Virus record (IMG/VR): IMGVR_UViG_2713896774_000001
Span: 1 to 29,255 of that record
Origin: a virus
Lineage: Duplodnaviria; Heunggongvirae; Uroviricota; Caudoviricetes
DNA: 29,255 nucleotides
Reading direction: 5' to 3' (one strand)
In this document: positions 12,560 to 29,255 of the stretch, piece by piece
How positions within the stretch are numbered: the first letter of the stretch is position 1
How the letters are laid out: each line of letters starts with the position of its first letter
Position numbers and translations under genes: made by a program
Notes under the pieces: generated by a model
The model's database searches: none
Seen by the model: the letters and a program-made list of their open reading frames with translations, nothing else
What the model was told of the DNA's origin: nothing

Positions 12560-13792
12560 ATGAAATATTTTTTCAATACCCGGCTGGGGGAAACCCGTTA
12601 TCAGCTGGCTGACGGCTCGCTGCTGTGCAAAGACGTGCCGATAGGTCGAACGGGTAAGCAGCTTTACGGCGCTGCCGATCTGCCAAACCTCAAACCCGAC
12701 AAGCTCGGCGAGATAGTCGTAACGCGCTCTCCTGATCAGGTATTCCATCCGGCCACGCTCGCCTCATTCGAAGGGATGAGCATCACGATCCTGCATCCTG
12801 AAGATGAAAACGGGAATGTGCGGCTGGTCAACCCCGAGAACTGGAAAGAGCTTGCGGTCGGGCATCTTCAGAACGTTCGGCGCGGGACTGGTGATCAGTC
12901 TGATTTGATGCTGGCTGACCTTATCGTCAAAGACGAAAGCGCCATTCAGCTGATCGAAGATGGTCTGCGCGAAGTGTCGTGCGGCTATGACGCTGAGTAC
13001 GAGCAGACCGAACCCGGAAAAGCCGAGCAGGTCGATATTACCGGAAACCATGTGGCTCTTGTCCCTAAAGGCAGAGCCGGAAATCGTTGTGCAATTGGAG
13101 ACAGAGACACAATGGCAAATCAAAAGAAAAGCTGGTGGACCCGCATGCGCACGGCCATCAAAACGGGTGATGCTGACACCATGAACGAACTGCTGGACTC
13201 TGCGCCAGCGGCGGTAACGGGCGATGAAGGGGATCTGCCGAGCGGCGTTAACCTCAACATTAATCTTTCACCGCAACAACCATTGCCGGACAAAAAGCCG
13301 GAAATGGGCGGAGAGCCAACCGGCGACGGCGAGGACGATATCAAAACCTTGCTCAAAGCCCTGCTGGCTAAGCTGGAAGGTACTGCAACGGGCGATAACG
13401 ACGATAAGCCTGACGGCAAAGATAACAAAGACCCTACCGGCGACGGTGAGGACGACGAAGAGGAAACCACGATTACCGGTGACGCTGCTTATCGTGCCGA
13501 AGTTATCGTTCCGGGTATCGATCTGAGCCGTAAGGTGAAACCGACCGCGTTCAAACGTGATGTGCTGTCCGCCGCTGACAAAACACTGGTTCGCCAGGTT
13601 GTCGGTGATGCAGATATCCGCAAATTGCCCAAGCAATCGGTCGATATGGCGTTTAACGCCGTGTCTGAGATTGCCAAAGGGCGAAACACCCGCAGCACCA
13701 CGGGCGATGCACAACGTCAAAATATGGGCATGACCAGCATCGCTTCCCTGAACAAACAAAACGCCGACTTCTGGTCTAACCGCAAAGGATAA
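12560..13792 (+). CDS. Putative scaffolding or prohead-processing protein (DUF2213-like) with an acidic repeat-containing centre
   Basis: 410-aa ORF between the MuF-like and capsid genes, with internal repeats (PTGDGEDD twice) and a charged low-complexity middle typical of scaffold proteins. Confidence 0.45.
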   Translation: MKYFFNTRLGETRYQLADGSLLCKDVPIGRTGKQLYGAADLPNLKPDKLGEIVVTRSPDQVFHPATLASFEGMSITILHPEDENGNVRLVNPENWKELAVGHLQNVRRGTGDQSDLMLADLIVKDESAIQLIEDGLREVSCGYDAEYEQTEPGKAEQVDITGNHVALVPKGRAGNRCAIGDRDTMANQKKSWWTRMRTAIKTGDADTMNELLDSAPAAVTGDEGDLPSGVNLNINLSPQQPLPDKKPEMGGEPTGDGEDDIKTLLKALLAKLEGTATGDNDDKPDGKDNKDPTGDGEDDEEETTITGDAAYRAEVIVPGIDLSRKVKPTAFKRDVLSAADKTLVRQVVGDADIRKLPKQSVDMAFNAVSEIAKGRNTRSTTGDAQRQNMGMTSIASLNKQNADFWSNRKG

Positions 13793-14311: not shown

Positions 14312-15253
14312 ATGATTACTTTTGATCAGGCAACCGTTGATAGCTCTGGTGCCTTTCTCATCGGGGAGCTGGAGCGACTCGACCAGACGCTGAACCTGCC
14401 GCTGGTGGGTTACACCTGGACCCGCGATATTCAGCTGCGTGAAGACGTTTCTATCGCAGATGACATTTCCAGCTGGACTAACACCAGTTTTGGCGCTGCT
14501 GGTACTGGCGCAAATCCGAACGGTAAAAACTGGGTAGGCAAAGACTCCACTGCTATTGCTGGCGTGAATGTTGATATCGGCAAAGACGGCAATCCGCTGA
14601 ACCTCTGGGGCATGGAACTGGGCTGGACCGTTGTAGAGCTGGCAGCAGCTCAGCAGGTAGGTCGCCCGATTGATACCCAGAAGTACGACGGGATGCAGCT
14701 CAAATGGCAGATGGACAACGACGAGCAGGTTTACATTGGCGATGATGCGCTCGGCCTGAAAGGGCTGGCAAACCTTGTCGGTGTGACGCTGAACAATGCG
14801 CCGAAGACCTGGGCGAACTCCACCAACGACGAGATTCTCGATAGCGTGAACAGCATTCTGTCGAATGCCTGGGCAGCATCCGGTTATTCCGTCGTGCCTT
14901 CTGATCTGCGCATTCCGCCAGAGCAGTATTCACTGCTGGCGAGCCGTAAGGTTTCCGAAGCGGGTAACCAGTCGCTGCTGACCTATCTGGCCGTGAACAC
15001 TATCGCTTTCCACCAGAACGGCGTTCCGCTGGAAATCAAAGCGGTTAAATGGCTGAAAGGGCGCGGGGTTGGCGGTAAAGACCGTATGGTCGCCTACACC
15101 AACGACAAGAAATACGTGCGCTATCCGCTGGTGCCGTTGCAGAGCGTTCCTATCCAGTATCGCGGTCTGCACCAGATTGCGACCTACTACGGCAAGCTCG
15201 GTGCGGTTGAGCCAGTGTACAAAGAAACCCTGTCCTACGTGGACGGTATCTGA
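14312..15253 (+). CDS. Putative major capsid protein
   Basis: 313-aa ORF in the capsid position, followed by a strong GNRA-loop hairpin; recalled as a DUF2184-type capsid family. Modest confidence. Confidence 0.55.
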   Translation: MITFDQATVDSSGAFLIGELERLDQTLNLPLVGYTWTRDIQLREDVSIADDISSWTNTSFGAAGTGANPNGKNWVGKDSTAIAGVNVDIGKDGNPLNLWGMELGWTVVELAAAQQVGRPIDTQKYDGMQLKWQMDNDEQVYIGDDALGLKGLANLVGVTLNNAPKTWANSTNDEILDSVNSILSNAWAASGYSVVPSDLRIPPEQYSLLASRKVSEAGNQSLLTYLAVNTIAFHQNGVPLEIKAVKWLKGRGVGGKDRMVAYTNDKKYVRYPLVPLQSVPIQYRGLHQIATYYGKLGAVEPVYKETLSYVDGI

Positions 15254-15263
15254 TAACCAGAAC

Positions 15264-15279
15264 GGCCCCGAAAGGGGCC
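15264..15279 (+). other. Stable stem-loop GGCCCC-GAAA-GGGGCC after the capsid gene (no U-tract)
   Basis: Perfect 6-bp GC stem with a GAAA tetraloop, 10 nt after the capsid stop and just upstream of the next ribosome-binding site (AAGGAAA). Confidence 0.6.
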
Positions 15280-15294
15280 AGAAGGAAACTTGAA

Positions 15295-15705
15295 ATGGCG
15301 AAAGAAAAGCTGGTTACCATCCATGTTCACACCCCGTTTACGCTGACGCTCGGCGATCAGTCAAAACAGGAGTTTGGCCGGGGACGGCATAACGTACCGG
15401 AAGAGGTTGCGTCGCACTGGTTCACCCAGGCGCACTCTGAGCTTTCCGAAAGCGTGATTAGCGACACCGATGATCTGCAACCCATTATCGACAGCCTGCA
15501 AGCGCAGATTGCCGACAAAGATAAGCAGATTGCCGACAAAGATAAGCAGATTGTCGATAAAGATCAGCTGATTGCCGATCTGAAAGAAGCGCTGCTCAAG
15601 CTGCAAGAGCAGAACGACAGCCTGCAAGCGCAGATTGCTGCCGCCCAGACTGGCGGTAATGGGGCGAAAGATGCCAAAGAATCAAAGCCTGCCAACAGTA
15701 AGTGA
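15295..15705 (+). CDS. Coiled-coil protein with heptad tandem repeats (QIADKDK), unknown function
   Basis: 136-aa ORF whose centre is encoded by 21-bp tandem repeats and is flanked by a 23-bp direct repeat encoding DSLQAQIA. Confidence 0.6.
15505..15567 (+). repeat. 21-bp tandem repeat, about 3 units (CAGATTGCCGACAAAGATAAG x2 plus a degenerate third)
   Basis: Read directly: units at 15505..15525 and 15526..15546 are identical; 15547..15567 is CAGATTGTCGATAAAGATCAG. A 23-bp direct repeat GACAGCCTGCAAGCGCAGATTGC occurs at 15490..15512 and 15616..15638. Confidence 0.9.
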
Positions 15706-16078
15706 TTTTCGCCGCGACTTCCCGCAGTTTGCTGACCCTGCCAAATATCCCGAAGCGCAAATCCAGTTTCGTCTGAATCTGGCTGATGTGCTGCTGAGCG
15801 AAAACGTCACCGGCAAAGAGTTGTTTCTGTACTTTGTCGAGTTGTTCGTGGCTCACTACATGACGCTCTGGGCGGCAGATAGCCGGGCAATGCTCGTCGG
15901 CGGCCCGGGTGGCTCAACCAATGGTGTTCAGTCCTCCAAGTCCGTTGACAAGGTAAGCGTCAGCTATGACACCAGCGCGACGCTAAACCCTGACGCAGGC
16001 TTCTGGAATAACACCCGATATGGCGCTGAATTTTATCAGCTGATCACGATGTTCGGTGCGGGCGGTCGCCAGCTATGA
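15671..16078 (+). CDS. Putative head-tail connector or head completion protein
   Basis: ORF in the head-to-tail joining gene block; ATG 15671 chosen over the track start 15635 to limit overlap with the upstream gene. Position-based call. Confidence 0.45.
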
Positions 16079-29223: not shown

Positions 29224-29255
29224 ATGAAGCCCTGCAAAGCCCTGCAAAGCCCTGC
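29224..29255 (+). repeat. Start of a downstream gene or locus: ATG followed by three tandem copies of a 10-bp unit (A)AAGCCCTGC, truncated by the window edge
   Basis: GAGGAG ribosome-binding site 11 nt upstream of ATG 29224, then GAAGCCCTGC-AAAGCCCTGC-AAAGCCCTGC to the last base. Preceded by a very AT-rich intergenic region (29083..29223). Confidence 0.5.

Follow-up and report, generated by a model that had tools for sequence, protein, structure and literature searches.

The 29,255-nucleotide stretch of viral DNA analyzed here (the window; IMG/VR record IMGVR_UViG_2713896774_000001) encodes a 136-aa protein of the STY1053 family that is built from three parts: an N-terminal α/β domain of ~45 aa, a heptad-repeat helix, and a Lys-rich disordered tail. 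Its gene, ORF 15295..15705 on the + strand, is a real and conserved head-module gene of an SEN34-like temperate myovirus prophage. Between near-identical prophages the gene differs in length, and these differences are genuine repeat dynamics and not assembly errors. This mutational and architectural account is held with high confidence. The helix itself appears to be a length-tolerant spacer that links two functional ends and probably dimerizes, and not a structural ruler. When repeat-driven length variation, the spacer, and an accessory role like that of lambda gpFI are taken together as the best explanation of the whole, the full combination has about an even chance of being right.

The STY1053 gene, its setting, and the anatomy of its protein

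The ORF starts with an ATG that is preceded, 8 nt upstream, by the Shine-Dalgarno-like ribosome-binding site GAAGGA (15281..15286, + strand), which is conserved in relatives. Its 136 codons and stop codon were taken from the ORF list and assigned to two families of which the protein is a direct member and which are both catalogued without a function. The NCBIfam model NF047914 (STY1053 family phage-associated protein) matches residues 8-49 with 77.1 bits against a cut-off of 40, and PHROG 2619 covers residues 3-135 on profile positions 1-124 (E 1.8e-45). NF047914 models the 42-aa N-domain only; the repeat-encoded helix and its polymorphism lie outside the definition of the family. Across the first 62 codons dN/dS ranges from 0.1 to 0.4, which marks the ORF as a real gene under purifying selection, and an identical 136-aa protein is on record from E. 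coli. Antisense ORFs over the repeat (15361..15627 and others) were set aside as by-products of the repeat.

Among named phages, the window is closest to Citrobacter phage Omnitron and to Salmonella phage SEN34, the latter of which is a temperate myovirus (PMC5261728). Read from the left, the prophage encodes an IS66 transposase, a DUF2280 small-terminase-like protein, the large terminase, the portal, and a Mu-F-like protein. These are followed by a DUF2213 protein, a cement protein of the XM1 gp53/E217 gp24/Pam3 gp6 type, the PF09950 major capsid protein, the STY1053 ORF, a DUF4054 adaptor, and a neck terminator; a DUF3383 sheath, the tube, the tape measure protein, and the baseplate form the final part. 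DUF2213 carries the newer Pfam name Pa193_gp24 (putative scaffold/protease) and is encoded at 12560..13792. The middle of this scaffold/protease protein is acidic and of low complexity; a TGDGEDD motif recurs there, along with a 12-bp tandem repeat (Tandem Repeats Finder match at 13341-13365). Relatives of the protein are 406 or 410 aa long, so that its length may vary too. At the left end of the window, the IS66-family transposase (42-1580, − strand; Pfam E 2.5e-104) is accompanied by two small ORFs (1629-1976 and 1973-2314) that could be IS66 accessory genes, and a run of 50 N at 2351-2400 represents either a masked stretch or an assembly gap. The right end is reached by a perfect 10-bp tandem repeat (AAGCCCTGCA × 2.9, 29227-29255).

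The upstream neighbor of the ORF is the major capsid protein gene (14312..15253, + strand; Pfam PF09950, E 6.5e-82; PHROG 264, major head protein). On the downstream side, the gene for the DUF4054 (E217 gp27-type) head-to-tail adaptor (15671..16078, + strand; Pfam PF13262, E 6.9e-27) starts inside the STY1053 ORF and overlaps its last 35 nt (15671-15705) in a different frame. The same overlap is present in the gene calls of enterobacterial relatives, whereas in Magia and IFTN9 the STY1053-family gene abuts the adaptor gene with no overlap. Between the capsid stop codon and the ribosome-binding site of the ORF lies a stem-loop, GGCCCC-GAAA-GGGGCC (15264..15279, + strand). The stem is kept in relatives with the GNRA loops GAAA, GTAA, GCAA, and GGAA, and the stems of phages yong1 and Mulock differ from it yet stay complementary. 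A function of the hairpin as a + strand terminator was ruled out because no T-run follows it; it may act in mRNA protection or attenuation, which would lift capsid expression above that of the downstream genes.

An AlphaFold2 model of the single chain, which was based on a 41-sequence alignment, has a mean pLDDT of 82.7. The family-defining N-terminal domain (aa 8-49 by the span of the NCBIfam model; 15316..15441, + strand) is modeled with strands at 6-11, 15-18, 24-27, and 30-35 and a helix at 36-48. A low-confidence hinge (50-54) leads into one long helix that spans residues 55-120 with a pLDDT >90, and the chain ends in a disordered tail (121-136, pLDDT <50 for 123-136). Within the long helix, eight continuous heptads cover aa 65-118 (15487..15648, + strand). 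Their register is unbroken, with I,I,I,I,I,L,N,I at the a positions and L,K,K,K,L,L,L,A at the d positions. The earlier note had described a coiled-coil protein and proposed a coiled-coil prediction as a check, and the prediction bears the description out, as a continuous register, hydrophobic a/d positions, and a long helix of high confidence come together in aa 65-118. The three tandem heptads place Ile at a and Lys at d, which results in a weak core. A single Asn at an a position hints that the coil is a parallel dimer. The Lys-rich C-terminal tail (15649..15702, + strand) is mildly basic in the clade of the window (net about +2) and is kept even in a coil-less allele of 73 aa. Matches to FAM76, GAS, SMC, SlyX, and similar Pfam/NCBIfam entries all remained below their cut-offs and were dismissed as reflections of coiled-coil composition.

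Repeats, length ladder, and recurrence

Two repeats are found in the DNA that encodes the helix. The tandem array has a period of 21 bp and 3.6 copies (15504..15578, + strand; 90% matches), encodes heptads that include IVDKDQL, was recovered by both Tandem Repeats Finder and a direct-repeat search, and reaches the top Tandem Repeats Finder score in the 29-kb window (122). Two exact copies of its unit, CAGATTGCCGACAAAGATAAG, lie at 15505..15525 and 15526..15546, and a third at 15547..15567 matches it at 18/21 positions, just as 21-bp repeats had been claimed for the center of the 136-aa protein. The array is enclosed by a direct repeat of 100% identity, the two copies of which (15489..15512 and 15615..15638, both on the + strand) are spaced by 126 nt or 42 codons. 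That a direct repeat encoding DSLQAQIA lies on both sides of the array had equally been noticed before, but its length is 24 nt and not 23. A search for direct-repeat families of ≥18 nt within 1 kb returned only these two, the 21-bp array and the 24-nt pair, in the whole window, and the other repeated 20-mers stem from the run of 50 N alone. The longest exact repeat inside the ORF measures 29 nt, whereas in 2000 codon shuffles it averaged 8.6 nt and never exceeded 17; a single repeated 24-mer in 29 kb has an expectation of 1.5e-6 by chance.

The comparison set comprised 120 close homologues, and the length ladder was counted on complete proteins. Allele DNA was collected by exact-protein look-ups, and a scan of genome contigs gave 5 loci only. 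In numbers of clusters, complete close relatives measure 94 aa (15), 122 aa (23), 129 aa (29), 136 aa (13), 143 aa (3), and 150 aa (4), and a 164-aa form occurs in one complete E. coli genome. Counted by member sequences, 122 and 129 aa are the commonest lengths, longer alleles are rare, and the 136 aa of the window are a minority form. All indels in the helix along this ladder are multiples of 7 aa. When the DNA is set out in 21-nt rows, the alleles of 122, 129, 136, and 143 aa resolve into 1, 2, 3, and 4 DKD-type units, respectively. The 94-aa allele is a precise deletion that has its junction at the 24-nt repeats and leaves a single DSLQAQIA copy. In the 150-aa allele, the 84 bp that the 24-nt repeats delimit in the 122-aa form are duplicated exactly, and the 164-aa allele is derived from the 129-aa form by the corresponding 105-bp duplication. 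Rare additional events of 7 aa are a duplicated EQNDSLQ in one relative (P0064) and a deleted PIIDSLQ in another (P0049). Across the alleles the middle of the protein spans ~2 to ~12 heptads, with the N-terminal domain and the Lys-rich tail constant.

Copy number differs among close relatives and the junctions fall at repeat boundaries, which are the marks of a variable-number tandem repeat. The earlier note had predicted that the copy number, and with it the coil, would change in-frame, and had named an invariant copy number among relatives as the refuting outcome. The comparison revealed 1-4 units and a 7-aa ladder from 94 to 164 aa that is made up of gains and losses of the 21-bp unit and of repeat-to-repeat deletions and duplications, in line with the prediction. 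Frameshifts in or just after the repeat region were encountered in L003 (Apirhabdus apintestini, ~4001-4345), P0104, and P0105; these are possible pseudogenes or homopolymer, sequencing, or assembly errors.

The alleles were placed on their genomic backgrounds by comparison of 1.5 kb of flanking DNA (capsid gene, N-domain, and adaptor gene), and nearest neighbors by these flanks usually have different alleles. The flanks of the window (136 aa) and of L013 (143 aa) are 98.8% identical, those of L006 (94 aa) and L013 98.9%, and those of L016 (94 aa) and L018 (122 aa) 98.4%. The 94-aa deletion is present on an E. coli-type background (L006-L009) and on a Salmonella-type background (L016/L017). 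Since the 94-aa alleles are nearest to full-length alleles on both, the full deletion arose at least two times. Duplications were seen on three backgrounds (L014, L015, and L027); the 150-aa duplication occurs on two of them, in Citrobacter (L014) and E. coli (L015), and P0109 represents an older, diverged case. An assembly artefact is an unlikely source of the ladder because the alleles occur in complete genomes.

The two 24-nt repeat copies co-vary within genomes, synonymous sites included. They differ by 1.1 of 21 positions within a genome, compared to 2.4 for the same copy between genomes (permutation p 0.002, on 10 distinct, non-independent sequences). Changes common to both copies are AGC→AGT in Rahnella, CAA→CAG in Dryocola, and GCG→GTG in Enterobacter, a set that includes synonymous ones. 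A simple explanation for this concerted evolution of the copies is that unequal exchange proceeds in cycles, and that the 150- and 164-aa alleles have been caught at one stage of them.

The DNA of the helix changes in-frame by two routes. Along the first, 21-bp units are gained or lost, most simply through slippage during replication, which yields 1-4 DKD heptads. Along the second, unequal recombination between the 24-nt DSLQAQIA repeats either removes the intervening segment (94 aa) or adds an exact second copy of it (150 and 164 aa). Events of both types recur in independent lineages, and repeated exchange keeps the flanking copies alike. Slippage and unequal recombination in a gene with heptad periodicity are ordinary mutational mechanisms of textbook kind. 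The in-frame repeat polymorphism of coiled-coil proteins in general proceeds similarly, by whole-heptad units, slippage and unequal crossover, and homogenization of the copies, with the difference being that a phage head-module gene is affected here and that its repeat region can disappear completely. For bacterial surface proteins, which provide the classic repeat cases, length or antigenicity is thought to matter.

The apparently dispensable helix and the wider STY1053 family

In the loci with 94-aa alleles, the neighboring head, neck, and tail genes are all called at full length. The 73-aa allele is more divergent and lacks the coil, its N-domain being joined almost directly to the KESK..K tail that the longer alleles also have. 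Annotated copies of it are present in complete E. coli genomes as well as in phage vB_EcoM-683R1. Part of the capsid-ORF-adaptor region is matched in 337 of 5426 complete E. coli genomes (~6%), some of which have two copies, and many of the matching genomes harbor this divergent coil-less allele and not the coiled-coil type.

A HMMER scan with the N-domain alone collected 127 representatives at 50% identity, which range from 49 to 328 aa and in which the domain is nearly always N-terminal. In the 103 interpretable distant members, the N-terminal domain is followed by 7-237 aa (median 63). Their middle is rich in Ala/Glu/Asp/Pro, has a median net charge of −5, and is not a coiled coil; three or more Lys/Arg are found in the last 12 residues of 75% of these 103 members. 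The gene directly follows the capsid gene in Burkholderia phage Magia, Klebsiella phage Mulock, Bordetella phage IFTN9, and Hafnia phage yong1. Two further features were noticed among P0131, P0133, P0134, and P0172, and also P0175, P0212, P0228, P0239, and P0243. Some distant members carry two STY1053 N-domains in tandem, and in a subfamily the domain is followed by another conserved motif, PGTPEYA, which points to an extra interaction site that the protein of the window lacks.

The coil-less alleles in modules without visible damage, together with the unrelated middles of distant relatives, argue for a helix that is a length-tolerant spacer and against a ruler. By the same evidence, length looks tolerated and not used, and most of the variation in helix length would, judging from this tolerance, be nearly neutral. 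The repeat-encoded coil would then represent one local solution for a spacer that is free in length and chemistry, which argues against a length-setting role.

Possible functions of the STY1053 protein

The most likely role of the protein is tentatively that of a capsid-associated assembly or packaging accessory, working by analogy like lambda gpFI or YqbF from Bacillus subtilis, although even this role falls clearly short of an even chance. The N-domain would dock on the lattice that the capsid protein forms in the prohead, and the tail, being flexible and basic, would contact DNA or the terminase complex and so help the packaging complex to form. The gene order matches, as capsid, STY1053 ORF, and DUF4054 adaptor in the window correspond to E, FI, and FII in lambda. 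Like the STY1053 ORF, gpFI (Pfam PF14000; PDB 2LSM) occupies the slot between the capsid and head-tail joining genes. [quoted passage not shown] The function of gpFI, unlike the role proposed for the STY1053 protein, has been shown experimentally. The domain order is reversed in gpFI, the folded domain of which is C-terminal, and gpFI is devoid of tandem repeats.

YqbF (Pfam PF14553 and PF21488; PDB 2HJQ) is encoded in the B. subtilis skin prophage, where yqbF directly follows the capsid gene. It consists of an N-domain and a C-terminal HeH motif, and a variable acidic spacer separates the two in its family. The C-terminal element of YqbF is thus a folded HeH motif and not a Lys-rich tail, and its spacer is acidic and disordered and not a coiled coil. 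The length of the YqbF family also varies (103-132 aa, L026 5001-5312 and alignment) through an acidic Pro/Glu/Asp/Lys-rich insert between the N-domain and HeH, in parallel to the free spacer of the STY1053 family.

Profile comparisons for homology to gpFI gave an hhalign probability of 0.5% against lambda gpFI, the profile of which is shallow (its search gave only relatives at ≥78% identity), and 0.07% against an alignment of the gpFI C-domain. For the N-domain of YqbF, the values were 0.12% (single sequence) and 0.07% (16-sequence profile). The ORF and the family members have no match to Pfam PF14000 or PF14553, and a PDB sequence search with the STY1053 family profile gave no matches. A Foldseek search of BFVD with the STY1053 protein returned nothing at E 0.001 or better, and all matches were uncharacterized. 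The three proteins come from the same slot and may be alike in architecture and perhaps in fold, and the STY1053 protein may be filed, by analogy, as working like gpFI and YqbF and not as a member of either family. Popovic and colleagues reportedly described, in 2012, prophage proteins with gpFI-like folds.

The functions proposed in the earlier note, namely head decoration, head fibre, and scaffold, fared less well than its reading of the repeats: they lose support through the absence of the coil from the 94- and 73-aa alleles and through the scaffold and cement genes that the module already has. A point of comparison is provided by the PB1-like phages E217 and Pa193, which have related head modules. 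E217 gp26 and Pa193 gp27 lie in the same slot between homologous PF09950 capsid and PF13262 adaptor genes, and Pa193 gp27 was detected in virions by LC-MS and is unlocated in the map (PMC11456595). This detection of a non-homologous protein of the same slot would fit a virion component better than a chaperone and is a point against a gpFI-like role. A head decoration or head fibre would have its N-domain anchored on the outer capsid and its coil pointing outward, and the copy number would tune the reach of the Lys-rich tip, for example in adsorption. An anchor domain with a helical stalk and a flexible tip resembles head fibres such as phi29 gp8.5, the gene lies in the head module adjoining the capsid gene, and two proteins among the weak BFVD matches are annotated as “structural protein” (E >0.5). 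Such a role is nevertheless rather unlikely. Neither Pa193 gp27 nor E217 gp26 is homologous to the STY1053 protein; homology to E217 gp26 was rejected at an hhalign probability of 0.05%, gp26 belongs to a different PHROG (3714), and both proteins are without coiled coil and repeats. Moreover, modules that look intact and one named phage genome have no coil at all, acidic or Pro-rich disorder takes the place of the stalk in distant relatives, and the capsid is already equipped with a trimeric cement protein. The dimer suggested by the Asn at position a would also mismatch the 3-, 5-, or 6-fold sites of a capsid. The literature yielded no proteomics or structure for any STY1053-family member, and the SEN34 paper contains no virion proteomics (PMC5261728).

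The overlap with the adaptor gene raises the prospect of a neck-associated or head-completion factor. Such a factor would be coupled in its translation to the DUF4054 adaptor and would work at the portal vertex, for instance as a whisker-like dimer or an adaptor chaperone. The arrangement in which the last 35 nt overlap the adaptor start is conserved, and the gene always lies immediately upstream of connector genes, but coupling is not universal given the lack of overlap in Magia and IFTN9. No fold match to any neck protein was obtained. The solved necks of E217, Pa193, and Pam3 are fully accounted for by adaptor, collar/connector, and gateway/terminator, albeit in phages without a homologue, and a neck factor is improbable. 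Still less probable is a contingency locus, in which high-frequency repeat change would be selected because it generates functionally different phage subpopulations. Perfect 21- and 24-nt repeats, many recurrent events, and concerted evolution do indicate a fast turnover; all changes are in-frame, however, which provides no on/off switch, the 122- and 129-aa alleles dominate over rare longer ones, and total deletion is tolerated. The least probable reading is a scaffolding or internal core protein, which would sit inside the procapsid as a coiled-coil dimer with a basic end at the C-terminus for binding of coat or DNA. Elongated coiled coils with a charged C-terminus are typical of scaffolds, and sub-threshold matches to Pfam PF06810 (20.7 bits against a cut-off of 35) and PHROG 194 (E 4e-4) recur in similarly weak form in 6 of 73 family members. 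These matches, however, cover the coiled coil only and stand among many generic coiled-coil matches, the gene is located downstream and not upstream of the capsid gene, and the complete loss of an oligomerizing helix is unlikely to be tolerated in a scaffold. The module, too, already encodes a scaffold/protease protein of the Pa193 gp24 type at 12560..13792 (PMC11456595).

The reading as a gpFI/YqbF-like packaging accessory can be extended from the single protein to the family. The STY1053 domain would then represent a large unrecognized class of gpFI/YqbF-type capsid-lattice tethers, which many myoviruses of Proteobacteria would encode right behind their capsid gene; this generalization is at present doubtful. 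In such a tether, the docking domain would sit on the prohead, and a spacer of almost any length, entropic or coiled-coil, would present the basic tail that captures DNA or terminase. Apart from this proposal, the analysis provides the first structural and evolutionary description of a widespread head-module family that has so far only been named. The new content is the architecture of two constrained ends joined by a free spacer, along with the gpFI/YqbF lead, and the opposition of constrained ends and a freely variable middle narrows the possible functions. The natural series of alleles from 73 to 164 aa is available for testing the gpFI-like tether model; if the model is true, these alleles with identical ends would constitute a ready-made experiment on how tether length relates to the initiation of packaging.
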